DNA from: Candidatus Thorarchaeota archaeon | GTDB lineage: Archaea; Asgardarchaeota; Heimdallarchaeia; Hodarchaeales; Hodarchaeaceae | DNA: 32,000 nt | Reading direction: 5' to 3' | Assembly (NCBI GenBank): GCA_048882505.1 | Contig: JBHLRO010000011.1 | Location: forward strand, 30,001 to 62,000 | Shown here: positions 17,817 through 30,685 of the stretch, in pieces | Layout of the letters: every line of letters starts with the position of its first letter | How positions within the stretch are numbered: the stretch's first letter is position 1 | The notes under the pieces: model-generated | What the model was told of the DNA's origin: nothing | The model's database searches: none | What the model saw: the letters and a program-made list of their open reading frames with translations, nothing else | Position numbers and translations under genes: made by a program

Positions 17817-18602
17817 GTGACTCAACTTAATCATTCCCGCCCAAACACGTTTACCTCCATCCATCCAGTTGCAGACATTACCCTAACCCCGCCCGTGATC
17901 GTTATCCAGGGTCTCCCGGGAATGGGGCTCATCGGTAAAATTGCAGCTCAATTCCTCATCAGCTATTATGATGCCCAGGAGATTGCACGGATTTACAGCT
18001 CCTTTTTCCCACCAGTTGTCCAAATCGACAGCGAGACTAGTCTTGGGCGCCTCACTCGAATGGAAATCTTCGCAGTTACCGACTCGAAACCCAACATGCT
18101 CATCATTACAGGCGATGCTCAACCCCATGATATCGGAATCGTCCAGGTTCTTAATGATGTCCTTGACTATGTTGCCACGCTCCATGCCGAAACTGTCATC
18201 TGTCTTGGCGGTCTTCGGGTCCACGATGAAGGTCCCGATGTAGCCGCATTTGGATACAGTTCCAAAACCCTTGATTGGCTAACCCAGTATGACATTGAAC
18301 CCCTCCGTGGGGGTGAAGTCACTGGTGCCGTGGGGGTTCTCTCCGCTCTCGCAGCTGAACGAAACATGACCAGCTTCGGTCTCCTAGGTAAACTCACCTT
18401 GGCCGGTACCGATCCGCTGGCTTCCAAAGTGTTACTTTCTCGTATCAACGATATTTATGATCTGGGCATTGATCTGGATGGTTTAGATATTACTATTAAA
18501 GAAGCCCAAGCCAAGAATGAACGCATCTCCAGTCTTGCTCGCGAAGTCCTCGAAAAGAACGATGACGAAGAATCCGGAAAGGATCCTGGTTATTATATCT
18601 GA
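17817..18602 (+). CDS. PAC2-family proteasome assembly chaperone
   Basis: GLPGMGLIGKIAAQFL, YSSFFPP, ITGDAQP, CLGG, GEVTGAVG. Confidence 0.9.
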   Translation: MTQLNHSRPNTFTSIHPVADITLTPPVIVIQGLPGMGLIGKIAAQFLISYYDAQEIARIYSSFFPPVVQIDSETSLGRLTRMEIFAVTDSKPNMLIITGDAQPHDIGIVQVLNDVLDYVATLHAETVICLGGLRVHDEGPDVAAFGYSSKTLDWLTQYDIEPLRGGEVTGAVGVLSALAAERNMTSFGLLGKLTLAGTDPLASKVLLSRINDIYDLGIDLDGLDITIKEAQAKNERISSLAREVLEKNDDEESGKDPGYYI

Positions 18603-19076: not shown

Positions 19077-20045
19077 ATGGCAACCATGAAAGGGGATAAA
19101 GCAAGACCCCAAAAAAAGACCCAAGTCGAGGACGAAGAAGAAATCCTCGAATGTAAAAATTGCGGCTCTAATGATATCGTCGCCGACGAAAACCGCGGTG
19201 AACTCATCTGCGAAAAATGCGGCTATGTCCTCGAGACCCGCCTCATCGATGAAGGCCCCGAATGGCGCGCCTTCAACTCCGAAGAACGCGATAAACGCTC
19301 CCGCGTCGGCTCCCCCTCCACCTTCTCAGTTCACGATAAAGGGCTCTCTACCATTATTGGGTATGAGAACCGCGACACCTTCGGCAATAAACTCACCGCC
19401 TCCCGTCGCGCCCAGATTTACCGTCTCCGGAAATGGCAGATCCGTACCCGTGTCCATTCTTCCATGGACCGCAACCTCGCCTTCGCGATGTCCGAAATGG
19501 ACCGCCTGGCATCTCAACTCGGTATCCCCCGGAACGTCAAGGAAACCGCCGCCATCATCTACCGCAAAGCCATCGAAAAACGCCTCGTTCGCGGCCGCTC
19601 CATCGAAGCCATGGTCGCTGCGACCATCTACGCCTCAGCCCGCGTCCGTCGCGTCCCCCGTACCCTCGATGAAATCGCGAAAGAAAGCCGTATCACCAAA
19701 AAAGAACTCGGCCGCTGCTACCGCCTCCTCCTCCGCGAACTCTATCTTAATATCCCTCTCGCGTCCCCCATCGACTATCTCGTCCGCTTCGGCACCGAAC
19801 TCCGCCTCTCTGGCGTCTGTCAACGGAACGCCGCCGATACCCTCAAACGCGCTAAAGCCGCTGGCCTTACCGCAGGCAAAGACCCCACTGGCCTGGCCGC
19901 TGCTGCTATCTACATTTCTGGTATTATCCACGGTGAACGGCGTACTCAACGCGAGATTTCAGAAGTGGCGCATGTGACAGAGGTAACTGTCAGAAACCGA
20001 TATAAAGAGCTGGTACGAAAGCTTAACATTGAGATTACGATTTAA
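19077..20045 (+). CDS. tfb: Transcription initiation factor IIB (TFB)
   Basis: Zn ribbon CKNCG...CEKCG, IDEGPEWRAF, two cyclin repeats, GKDPTGLAAAAIY, TEVTVRNRYKEL. Confidence 0.98.
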   Translation: MATMKGDKARPQKKTQVEDEEEILECKNCGSNDIVADENRGELICEKCGYVLETRLIDEGPEWRAFNSEERDKRSRVGSPSTFSVHDKGLSTIIGYENRDTFGNKLTASRRAQIYRLRKWQIRTRVHSSMDRNLAFAMSEMDRLASQLGIPRNVKETAAIIYRKAIEKRLVRGRSIEAMVAATIYASARVRRVPRTLDEIAKESRITKKELGRCYRLLLRELYLNIPLASPIDYLVRFGTELRLSGVCQRNAADTLKRAKAAGLTAGKDPTGLAAAAIYISGIIHGERRTQREISEVAHVTEVTVRNRYKELVRKLNIEITI

Positions 20046-20205
20046 AACAAGTTTCATCTGACTAGGATCGAATTCTAGTCATTTTAAGAGCCTATTGCCC
20101 GATCAGAAGATCGGGCTTTTTTTTTTCAGATTCATTTACGAAAAAAATCCTGAGATCTTTCCGAGCGTACAGTTGCTTTTTGGAGCGCCCAATCTCACGT
20201 GCTCC
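19977..20205 (+). repeat. tfb-3' repeat unit, copy 1 (the live tfb end + two inverted repeats + HTH remnant)
   Basis: Reference copy: stop at 20043-45, IR1 20060-20080, IR2 20097-20116, T run, conserved tail. Confidence 0.9.
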
Positions 20206-20235
20206 ATCGGTTGCTTTATCAATATTGCGTTCCAT
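20092..20235 (-). pseudogene. 3' remnant of a TnpC/DUF6262-like HTH gene (module 1)
   Basis: ERNIDKA..AREIGRSKKQLYARKDLRIFFVN, homologous to the remnants after copies 2, 3 and 4. Confidence 0.6.
20097..20126 (+). terminator. Hairpin + T10 terminator after tfb
   Basis: GCCCGATC-AGAA-GATCGGGC followed by a T run. Confidence 0.75.
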
Positions 20236-20424
20236 TTTTTGTGGATTTTGATCGATTAAGAGCGATCTAAAGGAATTAATTGGAGATCTCTCCTGCATCT
20301 CGGCGCAAGAATTGTAAAATTTATTGGAAACTCCACAATACTTAAACATACATGACCGCATGTTAATGGGAATAGCTTCTAATCCGTATCTATTCAAATT
20401 CCACATTATGGTTCAACCATTGAG

Positions 20425-21387
20425 ATGGGAGAACAGAAATTGAATCAAATAAGTAACCAAACAGGAGCAATGAAATCCATTGTACTTGGATTTATCCTTA
20501 TTTTCAATCTTATCGGGATTTATATGGGAGTGGAGCTTGCAGGCGTGCCATTTAGCCAGCAGACTAGTTTTACAATCGACAAACAAACTCAATACGGATA
20601 TATTAGAAAATATCCCGCGTTGTATGAATTACTTGTAATGGCAAATGCTTCTAATACCGAAATTATTAATTGTACAGCTTGGGTTGGTGTAAGTGACGTT
20701 CCCCTGACACAAGCATTTCAACTCGGCCCCGGAGATAATTTCTCAACTAGTAAGAGCCTCAATTATTTCTGGTATAGTATTTCTTTCTTCTTTAAGAATA
20801 CCTCGGAACCCCAACGTGTGGATATTAGGATGGAGGGACACTCAGGAACCTTTGAAGAACTTCTTGCTAGTCCTGGTACATTTTATGGAGCGGGAGGTAT
20901 TTTTTATCTCGTTCAGTATATCATTCCAGCTTTAATATCGATAGTCATTCTGGGTCCTATTCACTTTATTAATGCCATGTATAAGTTCACAGAGAGTAAG
21001 CAGGAAGTAGCGAGGTATCTTAGTCAAAATTTCCTTCCTCCATTTATATCATTGATTTTATTCTGGATTACGGGATTTGGGATATTGTTATTGGCAGTTG
21101 GGTATTATTTCGGGGTATTAGTAATAACTAGAATTATAGAAACAGTCCAACCGTTGAAGTCAACCGTAATGGCAACGGGTGGTGTGACATTCTTAGTTAC
21201 TGCCTTCATTTTGGATCGGCTTTATCAACCCTTGACTCCCCAAATCTTTAATGAGCAGGTAATCTGGGGTTTTTTTCCTATCTATCCGCTCATAATCACA
21301 ATAACGGTTTCAGGTATGTTGTTGCTCTTTGTAGGCCTCCCAAGAGGGCAAAACCGAAGCCATAAAACGAGGTTGCATGAAGACTAA
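20425..21387 (+). CDS. Hypothetical polytopic membrane protein with an extracellular domain (cargo)
   Basis: N-terminal hydrophobic segment, soluble domain, ~5 C-terminal TM helices; the 3' end reads into repeat copy 2. Confidence 0.75.
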   Translation: MGEQKLNQISNQTGAMKSIVLGFILIFNLIGIYMGVELAGVPFSQQTSFTIDKQTQYGYIRKYPALYELLVMANASNTEIINCTAWVGVSDVPLTQAFQLGPGDNFSTSKSLNYFWYSISFFFKNTSEPQRVDIRMEGHSGTFEELLASPGTFYGAGGIFYLVQYIIPALISIVILGPIHFINAMYKFTESKQEVARYLSQNFLPPFISLILFWITGFGILLLAVGYYFGVLVITRIIETVQPLKSTVMATGGVTFLVTAFILDRLYQPLTPQIFNEQVIWGFFPIYPLIITITVSGMLLLFVGLPRGQNRSHKTRLHED

Positions 21388-21560
21388 ACATCGCGATTAC
21401 GATTTAGAATGCATCTCATCAGGTTAGATATAATTTCTAACCATCAAAAGGGCCTATTGCCTGACCGAAAAGTCAGGCTTTTTTTTCTCTATTCTTTTAC
21501 GAAGAAGATTCTAAGATCTTTCCGAGACACCAGTAGTTTTTGGAATCAATGATTTCATAC
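21347..21560 (+). repeat. tfb-3' repeat unit, copy 2 (coding part degraded)
   Basis: CTAAACATCGCGATTACGATTTAG (LNIAITI*); IR1 21422-21442; IR2 21459-21478; minus-strand RKDLRIFFVKE. Confidence 0.85.
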
Positions 21561-21619: not shown

Positions 21620-21856
21620 TTGGTAAAATGGTCTAGGGACAAGAAGGGCTACAAGCGGTATTCTGATTCAGGAAAAGCTGTTCATCGTCACGTCGCGGAA
21701 TGAAAGCTTGGAAGGAAGTTACAAAAGGGAGAAGTTGTTCATCATATTAACAGGAATAAATCAAACAACCGAAGAAAGAACCTATGGGTCTTTAAGAGCC
21801 AGAAACAACATCATCGAACACATAAACGAGACAAGAAGCGATATGGTCGATGGTAG
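21620..21856 (+). pseudogene. Small HNH endonuclease interrupted by an in-frame TGA at 21701-21703
   Basis: MVKWSRDKKGYKRYSDSGKAVHRHVAE*KLGRKLQKGEVVHHINRNKSNNRRKNLWVFKSQKQHHRTH...; HNH pattern VHR.VAE..LGR.L...EVVHH.N.NK.NN...NL. Confidence 0.8.
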
Positions 21857-21885: not shown

Positions 21886-23112
21886 TCAATAGACTTTAGC
21901 TGACCTTAATGAACCCTGACACACCGAACATTTGGTCAGGCCCGCCTGTTGGCTTTCTTGATAGCAGTTCTGACAGACTGCACGTTGACAAGACGCACAC
22001 ACCTGATGTGGATCCTTTTTCGGGTAGAACCTTAGGCATAGGCTGCAAAAAAACCGATCTTTTGCCTTTAGAATTTCCACTTGTTCCGCAGGCACATACT
22101 CAATGGTCTGGGAACCTACGGAATACAACGGCGCCAGTTCGACGTTTTGCTCCCGAATGGTTTGCAGAATACAGAGGATTTCCTGGGCATGGGAGAGAGT
22201 GGGATCGGGAATAGAATCCCCGAATACTTTTGTGATGGTGGGGGTGATGAAAGTATCGATTAAATTCTTTATGGTGTCACCTGCCAGCTGAAAAAGACCC
22301 ACAAGCGGATTTTCCGATGGAGGGTCGTAAGTTCGAACATAATTATCCGTGATTTTTGTCACATTCTCAATAGTTAGCTCGGGCGGATCAGGGATTGGCA
22401 ATTTCCAGTTATCATGGACTAGGATGTCTTCCAAAGAGATTTTTTCAGCTACCGGGAGGTCTGAAAGGTATTGACGGATTTCCGCATCTAGTTCCTTTTT
22501 CCGGATGTCATCGAGATCCGTGGTTTTGGGGAGATGCAGGCGTCTTTCCTTATAATAGGTCATGCCGACCCTTGTGGATAGGATTCCTAAACGACATTCC
22601 CTGGCGAGTTCGAGTAGGGAAACCGTTTCACTCGATGTCGGTTGATTCTTCAGTCTGTGATGCGTTTGGATAATTCGCACCACATTGATTTCGATCTCAG
22701 ATCTGTCAAAAAGATCATAATAATCGGAAATTTTCTTTTCGGATAACTGGATCACGGTATTACAGAAATTAACGAGCTCTCGCCCATTAGAGAGCGAATA
22801 ATTGAGTCTGATGACGATATCCGTTAAGTTCAATTGGTCATTCTTGATAAACGGGAGAATTAAGATGGATTGAGCATCTAATTGCTGGATTTGGTCTTGA
22901 GTATATTTTTTCAATTGTTTGGGTCTAGGCGGGTGATTGAAGTAATGGATTACCTCGTCTAAGGATGCAGAAGGTATTTTCAGGTCTAAAAACATTTCCT
23001 CATTGGTAGGCAACCGCTGGTGCTCATACACAAAGTGAAAAATACGGGTAGAGAATTCATCTAGCTCGTTACTAGGAAGAGAATACTGTTTCTCCCGTTT
23101 GAACAATCTCAT
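21886..23112 (-). CDS. Hypothetical protein with helical/winged-helix-like repeats and a C-terminal 8-Cys (RING/FYVE-like) Zn finger
   Basis: 408-aa ORF; CSLC-x12-CASC-x4-CQNC-x11-CSVC. Confidence 0.7.
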   Translation of the reverse strand: MRLFKREKQYSLPSNELDEFSTRIFHFVYEHQRLPTNEEMFLDLKIPSASLDEVIHYFNHPPRPKQLKKYTQDQIQQLDAQSILILPFIKNDQLNLTDIVIRLNYSLSNGRELVNFCNTVIQLSEKKISDYYDLFDRSEIEINVVRIIQTHHRLKNQPTSSETVSLLELARECRLGILSTRVGMTYYKERRLHLPKTTDLDDIRKKELDAEIRQYLSDLPVAEKISLEDILVHDNWKLPIPDPPELTIENVTKITDNYVRTYDPPSENPLVGLFQLAGDTIKNLIDTFITPTITKVFGDSIPDPTLSHAQEILCILQTIREQNVELAPLYSVGSQTIEYVPAEQVEILKAKDRFFCSLCLRFYPKKDPHQVCASCQRAVCQNCYQESQQAGLTKCSVCQGSLRSAKVY

Positions 23113-23256
23113 CGTGAACCCTCTCGTGGTTCATGAGTTACGAAAAATCGGTTTATTACTTTAACCACACTAGTAATACAAATCCAGGGGGCGAAACCAC
23201 TTTGATAGGAGCAGGTGAATTAGCAGTTTTATAAATGTAAAAATTGATATTGAGTT

Positions 23257-23712
23257 ATGGCATTGAGGGTGCGCATCGGGATTATCTTCCTTACTCTTGC
23301 CCTTCTTATTGGAGGATCACCCTATCCACTGGCAGGCGCCTTATCGGGGTCATATTCTACTACTCTCTTGCAAGGTACCGATCATGAATTTGAAATGACA
23401 TTCACCTGGGAGATTGATCATACCTTCTGGATGGGCGGGGATACGTATGATGTGCGTTTAGGACGGTACATGAAAAATATCGGGGGAAACAGCTTTCAGG
23501 GAACCTATGCCTTTTATTTAGGGGTGGAGAATATTACCGCCTTCTCCATGTTTATGGGAGGGTCAGTAATCGCAACAGAGCCCTCAATTATTACCAAACC
23601 TCTAACGCTTGGAAAAAAAGAATCAAATTTCTATCTAGAAACCTTCTTGCGTATTAAACTTGAGGTAAATGATGATGTGTATGGGATTTACCATGAGACG
23701 GAGGCTCATTGA
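23257..23712 (+). CDS. Hypothetical secreted protein
   Basis: Signal peptide, beta-rich body; same strand and 25 nt from the next gene. Confidence 0.6.
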   Translation: MALRVRIGIIFLTLALLIGGSPYPLAGALSGSYSTTLLQGTDHEFEMTFTWEIDHTFWMGGDTYDVRLGRYMKNIGGNSFQGTYAFYLGVENITAFSMFMGGSVIATEPSIITKPLTLGKKESNFYLETFLRIKLEVNDDVYGIYHETEAH

Positions 23713-23737
23713 GTATGGCTGATCGGAGGAAAGGTGA

Positions 23738-24769
23738 TTGAAACAAAAACTAGGGATCACTGGATTGGTTCTCTTAGGCATTATGGTCGTGATATTCGCG
23801 AATCAGGCAGTACTAGCCTCAGTTCATCGCGAAGAGGAACATAAAATTGTCATCACAGCGATGACGGGCACCCAGTATGATAAGAAGGCTATAAAACTCC
23901 AGAAAAATACATTGTATGAAATTACGTTTTGGAATAATGAGACTGGGGTATGGCATGATCTCATCATTGCCATGGATGGTCGGAGAATTGCCAATTATGA
24001 AGCAATGTATCCAAAAAATGGAGATATTGTGCTGGGTCCGCTTCCTGTTGAAGCCAGCGCAAACAACGCTGGGGGAACAGGCACAAGTGTTTGGACTGGT
24101 AATTTTACTACGCCAGATAGTAACGGGTATATTCGATTCTTCTGTTCGTATGCGGGCCACTTTGATGCAGGAATGAGGGGCTATTTCAAAATAGGTGAAC
24201 CTGCGGGGGAGCTTTCTCCAGAATTCGACTTTAAGTTTCAGTTACTTAATGACTCAGCAGCATGGCTCTCGGATTACGAAGGTAATCCCATAATACTAGA
24301 CTTTTTCAGTATGAACTGTCAAGATTGTTTAACTCAGTTCTCGTATTATCGGGAGGCCCAGAATGTTTACCCATATGTTCAGATAGTCTCCATTTCAATA
24401 GATCCGTATCAGGATTCCAGTGACTACAACGATTATCTCTCCAATATTAGCCAGTTCGTGTCTGATTATCAAATGACCTGGACAGTGGGTCATATCTTTG
24501 GCTATACACAGGGACTACCATTTCATCCTATTACGGCTCCAACAATAGTTTTTATCGACTCCAACGGGGAGACATTTCACGAAGCGCATGAGGTCACTCC
24601 TTACCCGATATTGGCGGAATGGATTGAAAGGGGGGATTCTGGAACTTCAAACGCTACAGCCAGTCTACCAAGTCAAGTTATAAGTCCAGGCTGGACGTTT
24701 CCATTGCTTCCACTGATTGTGCTAATCCCTCTTTTCGATAGATGGCTGAATCGCAACAAGGTAATTTAA
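23738..24769 (+). CDS. Exported cupredoxin + thioredoxin-like (TlpA/SCO-type) fusion with C-terminal anchor
   Basis: Signal peptide; WHD His plus CSYAGHFDAGM (C-x4-H-x4-M) type-1 Cu site; DFFSMNCQDC CxxC domain; hydrophobic C-terminus. Confidence 0.8.
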   Translation: MKQKLGITGLVLLGIMVVIFANQAVLASVHREEEHKIVITAMTGTQYDKKAIKLQKNTLYEITFWNNETGVWHDLIIAMDGRRIANYEAMYPKNGDIVLGPLPVEASANNAGGTGTSVWTGNFTTPDSNGYIRFFCSYAGHFDAGMRGYFKIGEPAGELSPEFDFKFQLLNDSAAWLSDYEGNPIILDFFSMNCQDCLTQFSYYREAQNVYPYVQIVSISIDPYQDSSDYNDYLSNISQFVSDYQMTWTVGHIFGYTQGLPFHPITAPTIVFIDSNGETFHEAHEVTPYPILAEWIERGDSGTSNATASLPSQVISPGWTFPLLPLIVLIPLFDRWLNRNKVI

Positions 24770-24775
24770 GCGCCT

Positions 24776-25000
24776 GCTGAGGTGACCGTCAGAAACAGAT
24801 ATAAAGAGCTAGTGAGGAAGTTAAATATCGAAATTATCATTTAACTCCATTCTAATCTGACTAGAGTGAATTTCTAGTTGATTGAAGAGCCTATGGCCCG
24901 AACGGAAGCTCGGGCCTTTTTTTGTTGACAAAATATTTCCTGAGATCCTTCTGAGTATAGATTTGTTTTTTGGAGCATCCGATTTCACGCGCTACTGCGG
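24776..25000 (+). repeat. tfb-3' repeat unit, copy 3 (best preserved)
   Basis: EVTVRNRYKELVRKLNIEIII* (24779-24844); IR1 24859-24879; IR2 24895-24916. Confidence 0.92.
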
Positions 25001-25130
25001 GTACGTTTGGTTTTCCCCTCGTCCCTCCAAAGTCTTAATTGCTTCTTTCACTATTTCAACAGTTCTCGATTTACAACCATAAGAATGTATTTTCAGTTTA
25101 TCGAGGTTTTTTAGGACCACAAGATCCAGA
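24890..25130 (-). pseudogene. Frameshifted TnpC/DUF6262-like HTH gene remnant (module 3, longest)
   Basis: NLDKLKIHSYGCKSRTVEIVKEAIKTLEGRGE / KPNVPAVAREIGCSKKQIYTQKDLRKYFVNKK, with a 1-nt frameshift near 25010-25015. Confidence 0.65.
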
Positions 25131-25158
25131 ATTTGGCCTAGCAGTAATAGGGAAAAAT

Positions 25159-27618
25159 TCAGTTAATTCTATGACCTCGTTTTTCTATCACTTCTCTGAT
25201 TCCCTTTATTGTTACACTTTCTTTATTAAAAGCTATGACCATCGTTTTTGTCTGAGAGTCACCTTCCACACTGTTTATTCCTGAAACTTTCAGAAGGGCA
25301 TTTGTAAGACCATTCACACACCCTTGGCAATGAATAGTTGGAATTGAGAAGGATATTGATCCCATTTCTGGTACTGAGGCTCCTTGCTCCTCTTCAAGTG
25401 CTGTTACCTCCTGATTGGAGAGAATTTTGCCACCAAAAGAATTCAAGAGAACAGTTGTAACACTAGCCGCCATCGCAAGCATTGCAAAGACTGGATGAAG
25501 CAAGCCCGTGACTGCCAGTGGGACACCGATCCCATTAAACGAAAACGCGAGACCAACGTTTTGTTTAGTTTTGCTATAACTGGTTTTCCCGATCTCATAA
25601 GCATCAACCACACCTGAGATGTTGTCATGAACTAAAATGACATCTGCTGATTCAATCGCAATATCGGTGCCTGCCCCAATGGCGATCCCAACATTCGCTT
25701 GCATTAACGCTGGGGCATCATTAATACCATCACCCACCATCGCTACTCTTTTTCCCTGCTTTTGGAGGTTACGGATCTGTTCCGCTTTTTCTTGAGGCAG
25801 GACTTCGGCAATAACTTGGTCAATGCCCGCCTGTTTGGCAATAGCTTCAGCAGTGCGTTTATTATCGCCAGTGATCATTACTGACTCCAGTCCAACACGT
25901 TTCATTCTTAGTATACCCTCCTTAGCAGAAGGCTTGAGTGTATCAGCAATACCAATGAGCCCTATCAGATTAAAACCTTGTGCTACTCCAACCACAGTTT
26001 GTCCTTCTTTTTCTAGGGTATAGATATTTTCTTTCAGATGGTGAAGGGCAATCCCTTTTTCCATCAAAAAACGAGGGCTACCTACCCTAACTTCCGAAGA
26101 CCCAACAGACCCGATTACGCCAAACCCTGGTTTAATTTCAAAATCCTCTATTTTATTGGAAGTAAGAGCATAATTTTTTGCGTGAGCATAGTCCATGATA
26201 GCTCGGGCTAAGGGGTGCTCAGAATTTTGTTCAATACTAGCTGCCAATGAAATAACCTCATTTTCATCGTACCCGCCCATTGGATAAACAGTAACGACGC
26301 GGGGTTTCCCTTCTGTGATGGTCCCAGTTTTATCAAGTGCTACCACAGTGACATCTTTAAAAACCTGAAATGCTTCTCCCGAACGCATTAGAATGCCATG
26401 CTGAGCTGCCAGGCCGCCGCCGCGAATCATGGCTAAAGGCGTGGCCATTCCAAGAGCACAAGGATAACCCATGACCAAGACAGCTAAAGTGGTAAAAATC
26501 GCGGTCTGAAATTGAACTTCTCCAGAGACAAGCCACGCCCCTCCTGTCCAAAGGAGGAACGCAAAAGCGGCGAAGAGTAATACACCTGGGACAAAAATCT
26601 TTAAGACTTTTTCTACCGTTTGAAGAATACTTGGTTTCAAGGCCCGAGCTTCTTGAATGGATCTAGAGACTTGTTGCAGAAAACTGTCTTGGCCTACTTT
26701 AGTAGTTTCAATGACCAATGCACCATACTGGTTTAATGAACCCCCAATCACCTCATCGCCTTTTTCTTTAATAACGGGCATGGATTCACCTGTCACGAGA
26801 CTCTGATCAATCGTGGATTTACCTTCTTTGACCAAACCATCGATGGGAATACTCTCCCCAGGACGAACACGGACAAGGTCTCCTGTTTGAACCTGTTCGA
26901 TTGGAATTTCCTCTTCAATTCCGTTTCTAATTACCCGTGCTGTAGCAGGTTGTAGATTCATCAATTTCCGAATGGCCTGAGAGCTGTTAGTCCTAACTAG
27001 CAGTGAAATATATCCCGAAAGGATATGATAGGCCGTGATATAGATCGCCGCGCCCATAAAATCGGCCATCGGCCAAGGTTGAACAAAAAACCCGATCAGG
27101 CCGCCAAACAACCCTCCTAAGGCTCCAAATTCCATTAGGACATGCTGATTCAAAATCCCTCTTCTGAGTGACGCATAAGCCATCCTTAAGATAGGCCCGC
27201 CCACAATGAAGATCATGGTTAATGTTAACCCGAGGATGGCCCATGGAAACCAGGCTGGCTTTATCCCAAACCAGATCAAGGCCATAAAACCAAGAGTAAG
27301 AACACCGATTAGAGTGGTAACACTGAGTTGCCGACGATGACGCCGTAGTTCTTCCTCATCTTCCTCAAAGCTCTTAGGTTTGGTGGGATCACGGATGGAG
27401 TAACCAATACTCCGAATGGTTTCTCTGAGTTCTGCGGGAGTCGCTTTCGTGGGATCGTACTCAATTAAGGTTTCTTCGTGGGACAGATTGACCCCAACAT
27501 GGGAGACTCCTTCGATTCTTCGAAATGCTTTCTTAATACTTTCAACACAAAACGAACATTGCATTCCACCAATTTTCAAAAGCAGATTTGCCTTTCGTTT
27601 CACCGATTTTTCGGCCAT
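25159..27618 (-). CDS. copA: Copper-translocating P1B-type ATPase
   Basis: N-terminal GMQCSFC HMA; TGES; CPC; DKTGT; GDGINDAPAL; C-terminal HCQGC HMA; likely start at ATG 27618. Confidence 0.95.
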   Translation of the reverse strand: MAEKSVKRKANLLLKIGGMQCSFCVESIKKAFRRIEGVSHVGVNLSHEETLIEYDPTKATPAELRETIRSIGYSIRDPTKPKSFEEDEEELRRHRRQLSVTTLIGVLTLGFMALIWFGIKPAWFPWAILGLTLTMIFIVGGPILRMAYASLRRGILNQHVLMEFGALGGLFGGLIGFFVQPWPMADFMGAAIYITAYHILSGYISLLVRTNSSQAIRKLMNLQPATARVIRNGIEEEIPIEQVQTGDLVRVRPGESIPIDGLVKEGKSTIDQSLVTGESMPVIKEKGDEVIGGSLNQYGALVIETTKVGQDSFLQQVSRSIQEARALKPSILQTVEKVLKIFVPGVLLFAAFAFLLWTGGAWLVSGEVQFQTAIFTTLAVLVMGYPCALGMATPLAMIRGGGLAAQHGILMRSGEAFQVFKDVTVVALDKTGTITEGKPRVVTVYPMGGYDENEVISLAASIEQNSEHPLARAIMDYAHAKNYALTSNKIEDFEIKPGFGVIGSVGSSEVRVGSPRFLMEKGIALHHLKENIYTLEKEGQTVVGVAQGFNLIGLIGIADTLKPSAKEGILRMKRVGLESVMITGDNKRTAEAIAKQAGIDQVIAEVLPQEKAEQIRNLQKQGKRVAMVGDGINDAPALMQANVGIAIGAGTDIAIESADVILVHDNISGVVDAYEIGKTSYSKTKQNVGLAFSFNGIGVPLAVTGLLHPVFAMLAMAASVTTVLLNSFGGKILSNQEVTALEEEQGASVPEMGSISFSIPTIHCQGCVNGLTNALLKVSGINSVEGDSQTKTMVIAFNKESVTIKGIREVIEKRGHRIN

Positions 27619-27775
27619 ATTTCTTTCGACTCTAAAATAAAATTTCAAAGAAGGGTTTTAAATTCTCTAGTATGAATTTCCTAAACGCTGTAAATAAGAA
27701 TACAAAGAAGATGGCTCCTAAACTCCTTTTAGAAATCACTTCAAAGATATCGTACATCAAAAAAGGAAAAATTGA

Positions 27776-28000
27776 ACTGAATTTACGGTCAGAAATCTCT
27801 ACAAAGAGCTGGTACTGAAGCTAAACATTGAGATTACAATTTAAATTGGATTTGATCAAACTTGAATGAAAATCAAGTCGTTTAATGAGTTTACTTCCCG
27901 ATCAAGTGATCGGGCGTTTCTTTTTCTTATTTATTGACAGAAAACTGCCGTAATTCCTTTCTAGTATAGAGCTGCTTTTTGGAACAAACGTTTTCATAGG
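27776..28000 (+). repeat. tfb-3' repeat unit, copy 4
   Basis: TEFTVRNLYKELVLKLNIEITI* (27776-27844); IR1 27859-27879; IR2 27897-27914; minus-strand VAYENVCSKKQLYTRKELRQF. Confidence 0.9.
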
Positions 28001-28055
28001 CGACTTTTTAGGCGCTATCGAACTCATCCATAGTTTGTTGCCATCCTAGATTGAT

Positions 28056-28592
28056 CTAATTCATTATCCTAAGATTGATTTCTTGGAGGAATGAATCAAG
28101 AAATTGCTGCAGCTCAGGTCTAGGCTCAGGTTGCGTAATATCAATTCCTAATGGTTGAAATCGATGTGTTTGGACGGAAGTCTCTACTATGAGGTATACA
28201 AAGTACTCAGATCTTTTTCCTTGGATTTCCCATCGAATATCAGTGATTTCAGGCCTATAAATAGTTTTAATACGTTTTATATTCCAAAACCACCATCCAA
28301 TCTGAATTTTATCGTTTTCTGCTACTATCCCAAATCGAGAGAGAAAAAAGCTTGTCATCAAGGTAGCAAGCAAACATCCAAATGCACTGAAGAAGAGACC
28401 AAAGGTTATTGTAAAATTGCTCAGAAGAAAGCCAATCAGCTCTGATACAAAAAAGACGAAAAAGGCAATAACGACAATATAAGGACCTTTTCTTGGTATG
28501 ACGCTTTTGTGAATAGGGGAGATAATAGAGATTTTAGTTTGATTTCCAAATTTAATTGTTTCAAAAGAAAATGTCCGATCCAAGTCAATCAT
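28056..28592 (-). CDS. Hypothetical membrane protein (2 TM + possible PH-like domain)
   Basis: 178-aa ORF with two hydrophobic helices and a beta-rich C-terminus. Confidence 0.65.
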   Translation of the reverse strand: MIDLDRTFSFETIKFGNQTKISIISPIHKSVIPRKGPYIVVIAFFVFFVSELIGFLLSNFTITFGLFFSAFGCLLATLMTSFFLSRFGIVAENDKIQIGWWFWNIKRIKTIYRPEITDIRWEIQGKRSEYFVYLIVETSVQTHRFQPLGIDITQPEPRPELQQFLDSFLQEINLRIMN

Positions 28593-28596
28593 CCTT

Positions 28597-29529
28597 TTAC
28601 ATTGGGTTGTAAGAGCTGTCGGGATAGGGTGTCAAGAGGATTTGTGAATCGTTCCCCGTATTCCCATCAATCTTTTCATTTCCCAAGTAAATGGAAGTTG
28701 TCCCTAGAGTCTTCCACTCCCCTAATCCGCCAGAATGGACAAGCCAGGTGACTTCATCAAGGAGAACAAATCTTTTCAGGCTTTTTATCGCAAACTGATT
28801 ATGGTAAACCGTCTTAATACCCTCAAAGGAAGTATATACTGGTGAATTCACATAATCTATGAAAACCATATTGTATCCCCAAATATCCTTACCTGAAGAC
28901 GCGCCTAGCCATATTTCACCTAAATCTAAAAATTCAGCTGTTTCCAGAGCACCAGATGACAGGATCAATTCTTTTGAGACATCTACGGAATCATGCCCTC
29001 CATCTACCCGAAAAAAGAACATGGGTTCATTAGGGGATTCCCAGGCATATTCGCTATGAGAGGCATTCCACCCCTGTTCATCTTCCAAGAGAATTGAATA
29101 CTCATAAAGCGCAATTACGTAAAAATGATGGGCAATTGCAATGGCTTGATAAGCTGATTTGGGGTCAAAGTAACTGTACACCACGAGACGCGCCTCATTC
29201 AATCTGCCTTGAGTATCTGGGCAGAAATGGAACTCAGGACGACAATATAATCTCATCGCCATGTCCCCATCCATTGTCTCAATACCTTCGTACAAATAGG
29301 ATTTGCTTCGATTAAAGCTTAGGTATGGGAATGATGATCCTCCATAAAGCCTCAATCCATCTGAAGGAGCACTCGGTTGCAGGTTTGTTAGACTTACAAT
29401 AACTGAGGCCACCAGAATAAATCCTAATAGTAAAACAAGTGGCACCTTATCTTCTCTAACAATTCTTCGAATCTCATCATACATTGCCGAAGCCCCTCTC
29501 GATTTACGGAACCTGTATCCTCCAGGCAC
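28597..29529 (-). CDS. Hypothetical membrane-anchored/secreted protein
   Basis: 310-aa ORF with an N-terminal TM segment; 4 nt from the next gene; the start may be the later ATG (MYDEIRR). Confidence 0.65.
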   Translation of the reverse strand: MPGGYRFRKSRGASAMYDEIRRIVREDKVPLVLLLGFILVASVIVSLTNLQPSAPSDGLRLYGGSSFPYLSFNRSKSYLYEGIETMDGDMAMRLYCRPEFHFCPDTQGRLNEARLVVYSYFDPKSAYQAIAIAHHFYVIALYEYSILLEDEQGWNASHSEYAWESPNEPMFFFRVDGGHDSVDVSKELILSSGALETAEFLDLGEIWLGASSGKDIWGYNMVFIDYVNSPVYTSFEGIKTVYHNQFAIKSLKRFVLLDEVTWLVHSGGLGEWKTLGTTSIYLGNEKIDGNTGNDSQILLTPYPDSSYNPM

Positions 29530-29630: not shown

Positions 29631-29800
29631 CAAGCTACGGCCAGAAACCGATATAGAGAGTTAGTACGGAACCTGAATATCGAGATTACCATTTAAAACA
29701 ACTTTCATGGGACTAGGAGTAAATTCTAGTTATTCTAAGAGTCTATTGCCTGATCGAAATCTCAGGCTTTCTTTTTTCTATCCTCTCGTGAAATCTTCAG
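29631..29800 (+). repeat. tfb-3' repeat unit, copy 5
   Basis: QATARNRYRELVRNLNIEITI* (29631-29696); IR1 29711-29731; IR2 29748-29767. Confidence 0.9.
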
Positions 29801-30473: not shown

Positions 30474-30573
30474 CGCAATCCCTGCAATCCTTGATCTTAG
30501 GTATAGGGAATTAGACCTTTAAAAATTCATGCATTTTTTCATCTGTTGTTTCTTTTTGGAATCTGATTCAATT

Positions 30574-30685
30574 CTTAAATATCAAGGTTCGGGTTGTGTG
30601 CGTTCCAACAAGAGTTCCTACAGTTATCTGAGAAGCCTATTGCCTGATTGAAGAAAAAGCACTCTCTTTTATCTTCCTCAGATCT
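30574..30685 (+). repeat. Possible highly degraded repeat copy 6
   Basis: TTAAATATCAAGGTT (LNIKV vs LNIEI); GAAGCCTATTGCCTGAT matches the IR2 left flank; minus-strand DLRK; IR1 and the right arm of IR2 are lost. Confidence 0.5.

Follow-up and report, generated by a model that had tools for sequence, protein, structure and literature searches.

What could set several copies of the end of a basal transcription factor gene in a row behind the gene itself? The question is raised by a stretch of 32,000 nt, here called the window, from contig JBHLRO010000011.1 of assembly GCA_048882505.1 (G000:C11:30001-62000, where G000 is the source genome, placed in the Hodarchaeales of the Asgard archaea by the source names of the homologs, with 4.3 Mb and 41% GC). 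The window contains a live tfb paralog on the plus strand (19077-20045, 322 aa). Behind it stand further copies of its last 21 codons and of about 140 nt beyond them, all of them direct repeats with a single orientation (repeat family D1; alignment A2). The 66 bases at 24779-24844, the fragment under study, are one of these displaced tails, and a preliminary description had proposed that the TFB tail was swapped repeatedly.

The live tfb gene and the tails behind it

The live TFB consists of a TFIIB Zn-ribbon (Pfam, 1.6e-19) and two TFIIB repeats (Pfam, 5.7e-43), and is 95-96% identical to its orthologs in six congeners. The gene is one of five TFB paralogs in the G000 genome and is missing from some congeners, a single-contig genome included, and may thus be dispensable. 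The gene upstream of tfb, at 17817-18602, encodes a protein of the PAC2 family (proteasome assembly chaperone). When the flanks of tfb were compared with the congeners' tfb flanks by tblastx, no similarity was seen on either side, and a comparison of empty and occupied sites by their flanks was therefore impossible in G000.

Five or six tail copies (W1-W6), all on the plus strand, form a row at tfb. W1 (19980-20045) is the live tail, consisting of the last 21 codons and the stop (..EITI, stop), and was the reference for all comparisons. W2 (21342-21407) can be read in its 3' half (RLNIAITI, stop) and is degenerate in its 5' half, while its counterpart in genome G016 is intact (YKELVRKLNIEITI, stop). 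W3 (24779-24844) is a complete displaced tail that translates as EVTVRNRYKELVRKLNIEIII followed by a stop. W4 (27779-27844) and W5 (29631-29696) follow, and the region 30550-30660 holds a strongly degenerate sixth tail, W6, together with a hairpin remnant (repeat family D3; alignment A2). Immediately behind W1, at 20046-20126, we observed a terminator-like unit in which a GC hairpin with a T-run accompanies another hairpin (repeat families D1 and D3; alignment A2). This unit recurs after each of W1-W5 and is degenerate after W6.

In the whole G000 genome the repeat unit was found at this locus only, and a degenerate pattern for VTVRNRYK had four matches in the window against 0 expected. The direct repeats are only 61-84% identical, with no long core common to all copies, although age could have erased one. 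Decay along the array is not monotonic with distance from tfb, as W2 is worse kept than W3-W5. Rows of two to six tails per contig were present in 9 of the 22 genomes of the genus (G000 counted), and displaced tails stand behind the genomes' own tfb in G003 (three) and G018 (four), where the displaced copies start with stops or junk.

The open reading frames around W3-W5 were also inspected. W3 starts 9 nt past the TAA of an ORF at 23738-24769, which encodes a 343-aa thioredoxin-like protein, and is in the same frame. Readthrough of this TAA and three codons (24767-24844) would add a TFB tail peptide to the thioredoxin-like protein; the frame match is probably a coincidence. W4 sits in the region upstream of a divergent copA-like ATPase gene, and W5 lies inside an implausible 70-aa ORF with a TTG start that overlaps a 310-aa ORF on the opposite strand. 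These displaced tails do not belong to evident independent genes; had they been translated parts of such genes, this would have told against the preliminary description.

The displaced tails differ from the live tail mainly at synonymous sites

The preliminary description had counted the codon differences between three displaced tails and the live end, and we repeated the comparison with W1. Of the 21 codons of W3, 11 are changed; 10 of these changes are synonymous, and ACG>ATC (T>I) is the sole one to alter a residue, exactly as had been stated. For W4 the three nonsynonymous changes were recovered, two of them being Arg>Leu, but the synonymous changes number six and not seven. W5 has seven synonymous and five nonsynonymous changes, in agreement with the earlier counts (about 7 and 4-5). 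In W4 and W5, codons 1 and 2 fall on the boundary of the repeat and should be read with doubt.

Using the Nei-Gojobori method, pS was 0.57-0.93 and pN 0.05-0.17 for W3-W5 against W1. The dN/dS estimate, proposed earlier as a check, was about 0.07-0.16. In a Monte Carlo procedure, the same number of transitions and transversions was placed at random and the residue changes were counted. The synonymous excess was beyond random expectation in each case (P<2e-5 for W3, 0.002 for W4 and 0.004 for W5). The bias was also seen in a set of 10 displaced tails from three genomes (W3-W5 of G000 and seven displaced tails of G003 and G018), which had 54 synonymous and 14 nonsynonymous changes, each copy at P<0.04.

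Between species of the genus, the tfb bodies have a pS of 0.77-0.88 at 95-96% protein identity, and synonymous sites among the tails are as saturated as among tfb genes of different species. Low dN/dS together with species-level pS indicates that almost all of this divergence arose under purifying selection, with each tail at work as a TFB C-terminus in a lineage of its own, and that import and displacement came later. The view that each tail was once a working TFB C-terminus is supported by the dN/dS of 0.05-0.16 at near-saturated synonymous sites, and that of repeated swapping by the five or six tails in a row here and similar rows in about eight other genomes. Judged from sequence comparison alone, W3 is a former, once functional 3' end of a tfb gene, and the displacement of the tails is recent relative to the divergence between them.

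Nearest-neighbour assignment of the tails resolved no donor, as only 45-63 saturated nt were available: over 45 nt the best identities were 76-84%, and own and foreign tails were tied. All G000 tails from W1 to W5 have Asn where the congeners have Ser (..LNIE.. versus ..LSIE..), and all end in Ile where the congeners end in Val. These common residues suggest that the exchange may have taken place within an unsampled subclade. In G016, a tail unit is 93% like W1, and an island on one contig (G016:C137) has 88% nucleotide identity to island 2 of G000, which suggests that G016 belongs to that subclade.

The live gene itself has an unusual composition. Its GC3 is 0.62 overall, compared with a genome median of 0.38, and ranks second of 1491 long ORFs. 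It falls from ~0.73 in codons 37-256 to ~0.44 in the last 66 codons (from codon ~257), while tfb orthologs in relatives have a GC3 of 0.19-0.48 without a comparable 3' drop. Because of this rank and of the composition change ~200 nt before the stop, the live G000 tfb looks like a putative mosaic with a break at that point. The tfb genes of G013 and G001 are 97.0% identical in the body and 90.5% in the tail. Both this tail divergence and the composition change in G000 would be expected if 3' ends had been converted. When tfb was compared segment by segment, third-position identity was saturated everywhere. The high GC3 of tfb does not look like expression-linked codon bias, which was rejected: the other ORFs with top GC3 resemble, by eye, a multi-pass membrane transporter, a zinc-type alcohol dehydrogenase and an AAA ATPase, none of them a classic case of high expression.

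The gene X beside the tfb tails

Each of the tails W1-W4 is followed by the terminator and then by a minus-strand C-terminal stump of a protein that we call X. Remnant 1 (20110-20310, inside the ORF 20092-20406) retains ~70 C-terminal codons without internal stops and ends in ..AREIGRSKKQLYARKDLRIFFVNE; it was related by tblastn to X of G018 and G031. Remnant 2, after W2 (21480-21542), has ~21 codons (..SRKDLRIFFVKE, stop), remnant 3, after W3 (24909-25169), ~85 codons with 4 stops (..AREIGCSKKQIYTQKDLRKYFVNK), and remnant 4, after W4 (27894-28040), ~46 codons with 2 stops (..CSKKQLYTRKELRQFSVNK). Like the tails, the stumps differ from one another to a large extent in synonymous positions (10 synonymous and 7 nonsynonymous changes between stumps 1 and 3). 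W5 is followed by the hairpins, with no recognisable X stump. The minus-strand stumps had been described earlier as TnpC/DUF6262-like. This identity was rejected, as they align to the C-terminus of a LAGLIDADG protein.

Full-length X genes were found in G018 and G031, convergent on the live tfb and ending in ..IGCSKKQLYKR.DLR.YFIGK. X points with its 3' end towards a tfb tail in G018, in G010, on two contigs of G031 and on four metagenome contigs, the X proteins of these four being only 43-66% identical to that of G031. Stumps of X stand beside tails in G012 (three times), G007, G016 and G000. In all, an X match was obtained in 12 of 24 genomes of the order, with stop-free, near-full-length copies in only three (G031, L034:1501-3048; G018, L026:16007-18115; and G010, L045:1471-3051); the remaining copies have stops, are truncated or are stumps. 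No intact X was found in G000, and in G001 and G013 no X adjoins tfb. This distribution looks like a homing-endonuclease life cycle, with patchy presence and absence and apparent decay after fixation.

The linkage to tails is not complete. The distal cassettes of G003 and G018 have tails with no detectable X stump, and some X copies are not beside a recognisable tail (truncated copies at G001:C96, G007:C52 and G014:C411, and one Promethearchaeota homolog). Where the far end is visible (G018 and G031), the intact X is in the tfb-proximal cassette and is followed by cargo and then by displaced tails. The order in these two genomes is tail, X, (cargo), displaced tail; in the window it is tail, X stump, cargo, four times.

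Two contigs of G031 (C49 and C137; L042 and L054) each combine the 3' end of tfb with an X of another subtype: type A, which ends in ..SKKQLYKRQDLRGYFIGK, and type B, which ends in ..SRKLFYERADLRALFEDD. The presence of two subtypes in one MAG suggests either polymorphism between strains or endonuclease lineages that compete for one site. Three type-A cassettes carry, between the tfb stop and X, a conserved ORF of 176-199 aa of no known family (27-45% identity; L034:903-1433, L026:18152-18739 and L037:8225-8824), and G010 has a 135-aa ORF at this place. The 176-199-aa ORF may be a cassette accessory gene.

X is predicted to have a double-motif LAGLIDADG fold

From its likely start Met, full-length X has ~500-530 aa, and annotated ORFs reach about 700 aa. 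The motifs HIAGDGNV and FLAAFIVDDG lie ~95 residues apart, and G173, D174, G175, D267 and D268 are invariant in 24 X homologs. Among these 24 members, 11 had a match to Pfam LAGLIDADG_3 (best E 5.9e-6), and some had weak matches to Cro/C1-type HTH families in the N-terminal part. The C-terminal end is also HTH-like, judged only by eye. Profile and single-domain sequence searches of X against PDB chains gave no match with E up to 1-10, so that X is identified only by fold comparison and by the Pfam matches of family members.

An AF2 model of X (pLDDT 85) matched I-DmoI, PI-PfuI, PI-SceI and I-SceI in Foldseek (E ~1e-5). Superposition on I-DmoI and PI-PfuI gave VIA Z 13.9 and 13.4, with an rmsd of 2.9 A over 164-175 residues (160-354), and the model meets the criterion of a pseudo-dimeric alpha-beta-beta-alpha-beta-beta-alpha fold. 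The LAGLIDADG fold is also present in WhiA, a non-cutting regulator (Z 11.2 versus X). Unlike X, WhiA is not known to keep both catalytic Asp residues. On the strength of its motifs, the Pfam matches and the model, X is a homolog of monomeric double-motif LAGLIDADG homing endonucleases with both catalytic acidic residues kept; its cleavage activity is inferred. In a set of 5.8 billion proteins we found 41 homologs, and every one with a source name came from a MAG of the Hodarchaeales or the Promethearchaeota. The viral contigs searched did not contain X.

Genes carried between the tails

The cassettes contain genes in both orientations, and many are small (0.7-3 kb), with cargo reaching up to 11 kb. 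The first cargo in the window is a 320-aa hydrophobic ORF without a Pfam family (20425-21387, plus strand), probably a membrane protein, whose 3' end runs into W2. The second (21886-24769) comprises a 408-aa Cys-rich ORF on the minus strand, and a 151-aa ORF and the 343-aa thioredoxin-like/AhpC-TSA ORF on the plus strand. The third is a heavy-metal P-type ATPase of 829 aa (25159-27648, minus strand; Pfam E1-E2_ATPase 2.3e-51, HMA 2.1e-24, Hydrolase 3.2e-35). The fourth consists of two minus-strand ORFs of 178 and 310 aa (28056-29529), with no Pfam family.

Directly after W2 and X stump 2 there is an HNH_3 endonuclease pseudogene with one TGA (21620-21856, plus strand), a second nuclease type at a cassette head. 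The pseudogene opens island 2 and is a lesser observation in keeping with the route proposed below. Its ortholog in G016 is intact (82 aa; L032:1201-1449, minus strand; Pfam HNH_3 1.1e-11).

Other cargo was seen behind X elsewhere. In G018 (L026:7900-18900) it includes RmuC, a DinG/XPD-like helicase, an AAA ATPase and an RNase III-like protein with a dsRBD. The contig of P0016 (L038:1-6000) has a Piwi (pAgo) gene and a helicase, and that of P0022 (L040:1-6000) a DEAD_2 helicase together with a nuclease of the RNase_Zc3h12a type. Behind intact copies of X, then, the cargo has the look of defence genes.

A proposed route for tail displacement

The explanation that we favour, with moderate confidence, is an invasion of the tfb 3' end by free-standing LAGLIDADG cassettes, each of which brings a replacement tail and leaves the old one stranded. 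X would reside convergently just behind tfb, and its product would cut tfb alleles that lack X or are differently recoded, ~60-72 nt before the stop. Such a cut would fall in the conserved codons ..VTEVTVRNRYKEL.. of the C-terminal helix-turn-helix, which encode its recognition helix. Repair would copy the donor cassette, consisting of a replacement tail that keeps TFB intact, the two-way terminator, X and the cargo behind X, and the resident tail, variably resected, would end up downstream. Repeated invasions would stack the cassettes. X would later decay to C-terminal stumps, as homing endonuclease genes do once fixed, and the metal ATPase, nuclease and defence cargo would persist.

Within this mechanism, the cleavage of tfb by X, the position of the cut and the repair route are inferred. 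A site-specific break is suggested by the left ends of ~20 displaced tails, none of which falls outside the stretch 42-72 nt before the stop, in these same codons. The weaknesses are that there are no cleavage data, that G000 has no intact X, that some tails are without an X stump and that some X copies are without a tail; moreover, a homing element would not be expected to carry as much as 11 kb of cargo, decay is not monotonic along the array, this tfb may be dispensable, and the fold is shared with WhiA. These weaknesses keep alive the models in which an integrase acts in trans or the tail serves as a homology anchor.

Other explanations for the array

Integrase-type elements would use the tfb 3' end as their att site, with an attP that carries a gene-restoring tail. 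The enzyme could be a tyrosine recombinase, a host Xer acting in trans or a casposase; the site would be re-used in tandem, the integrases would later be lost, and X would be a passenger. Phage 21 and e14 integrate in E. coli icd. With integrase elements, as with the tails, DNA of the element restores the end of the gene, the former end remains as a downstream direct repeat and the site can be used again, and direct repeats with fairly fixed left ends suit att sites. Archaeal elements are known to integrate into 3'-distal parts of protein genes and to form tandem arrays (PMC6563490). The distal cassettes of G003 and G018 that lack X stumps also fit this explanation.

What is missing is the enzyme, of which there is not even a detectable relic, while a homing endonuclease gene stands at the junction. 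The island ORFs of G000, G003 and G018 gave no integrase, resolvase or Cas1 match in Pfam, and a six-frame search of the whole G000 genome gave a single Phage_integrase match (PF00589), on another contig (C5), and no resolvase (PF00239). Integrase-type elements would also leave unexplained why a LAGLIDADG gene remains attached to the tail across X lineages of 43-66% identity. Many cassettes of 0.7-3 kb are too small for autonomous elements, and X did not occur in the viral contigs. We therefore regard integrase-type elements as unlikely, without excluding them. Two specific systems were rejected. An integron does not fit, as there is no IntI match, the repeats are gene tails and not attC, and the cassette genes are in both orientations; a casposon was dismissed in the absence of a Cas1 match.

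The array might also have arisen with no dedicated enzyme. The conserved tail would then be a homology anchor for homologous or homology-facilitated illegitimate recombination with related strains, and X a conserved neighbour, for example a WhiA-like regulator. The tail is indeed highly conserved, the poor flanking synteny makes one-sided homology events plausible, and X and WhiA have a fold in common. However, the junctions are confined to a 30-nt stretch and are not spread over the equally conserved tfb body. Both catalytic Asp residues of X are invariant, and a gene that is patchy and often pseudogenised does not fit a housekeeping regulator. We give this explanation little weight.

It is highly improbable that selection still acts on the displaced tails where they stand, whether because they are translated within other genes or because they form a reservoir of silent cassettes for conversion of the TFB C-terminus. 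W3 alone could argue for this, being nearly without nonsynonymous decay and in frame with the upstream ORF with a single TAA between; the frame match, however, has a chance expectation of 1 in 3. The tails encode nearly the same peptide, so that nothing varied could be drawn from a reservoir. Decay is evident in W2 and W6, W4 has its two Arg>Leu changes, and the G003 and G018 copies begin with the stops or junk noted above.

Local tandem duplication of the tfb end with neutral drift, the synonymous excess being due to chance, has in its favour only that the copies are direct repeats in one orientation, and it is hardly credible. The preliminary description had argued against it, and it is ruled out by a dN/dS of ~0.07 where ~0.5 is predicted for one live and one dead copy, by the Monte Carlo P values (<2e-5 to 0.004) and by the replication of the bias in 10 copies from 3 genomes.

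Relation to known systems

Invasion by LAGLIDADG cassettes has its closest likeness in the mORFs of fungal mitochondria, described in Allomyces macrogynus atp6 and in Glomus sp. atp6, atp9, cox2 and nad3 (PMC3630166). The mORFs insert at the 3' end of a gene, bring a foreign C-terminus and strand the native one downstream (PMC3630166). In both cases a LAGLIDADG ORF (in mORFs also GIY-YIG) is found at the 3' end of a conserved gene along with a replacement C-terminus. The inserted and displaced ends of mORFs differ mostly in DNA and little in protein, a criterion that the tfb tails meet. The differences are that the present locus is on an Asgard archaeal chromosome and that the target is a basal transcription factor. 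The X gene is convergent, with a terminator between it and the tail and no in-frame fusion, the predicted enzyme is large with additional HTH-like regions at both ends, and the tfb cassettes are stacked five or six deep with kilobases of cargo.

The Seg and Mob endonucleases of T4-like phages are also encoded by stand-alone genes between other genes, and the logic of intronless homing is the same (PMC2988022, PMC2790892). They cut a conserved neighbouring gene in genomes lacking the endonuclease and spread with flanking DNA by repair (PMC2988022, PMC2790892). Unlike X, they are GIY-YIG or HNH enzymes, leave no duplicated gene end and work during phage co-infection, not on a cellular chromosome. 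X shares with the archaeal enzymes I-DmoI and PI-PfuI the monomeric double-LAGLIDADG fold and the acidic residue that ends each motif. I-DmoI is encoded in an intron and PI-PfuI in an intein, whereas X is in neither, has only 14-18% identity to them and carries ~160 extra N-terminal and ~160 extra C-terminal residues.

In the literature on Asgard mobile elements we found no description of tfb-targeting endonuclease cassettes. What appears to be new here, and we hold this to be probable though by no means settled, is mORF-like end replacement on an Asgard chromosome, with a basal transcription factor as target, in a stacked and cargo-bearing form. A bolder proposal is possible but doubtful. The tail stack would be an endonuclease-driven platform for gene capture, and the LAGLIDADG cassettes a natural gene drive that moves defence and metal-resistance cargo between Hodarchaeales lineages. 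Synonymous recoding would itself be selected, giving the carrier allele immunity to its own and rival endonucleases in an arms race with at least two X subtypes (A and B).

Asgard archaea are the closest prokaryotic relatives of eukaryotes. If the invasion of tfb by LAGLIDADG cassettes is true, gene-end swapping of the mORF type would extend from fungal mitochondria to Asgard archaeal chromosomes, and a new family of endonucleases with long recognition sites would be predicted, with their target in the tfb 3' region. It would also be a warning that conserved marker genes can carry mosaic 3' ends that came from foreign DNA. For these archaea it would mean that endonuclease cassettes can pile into islands with metal-resistance and defence genes, and that horizontal gene flow and island building can proceed without an integrase.
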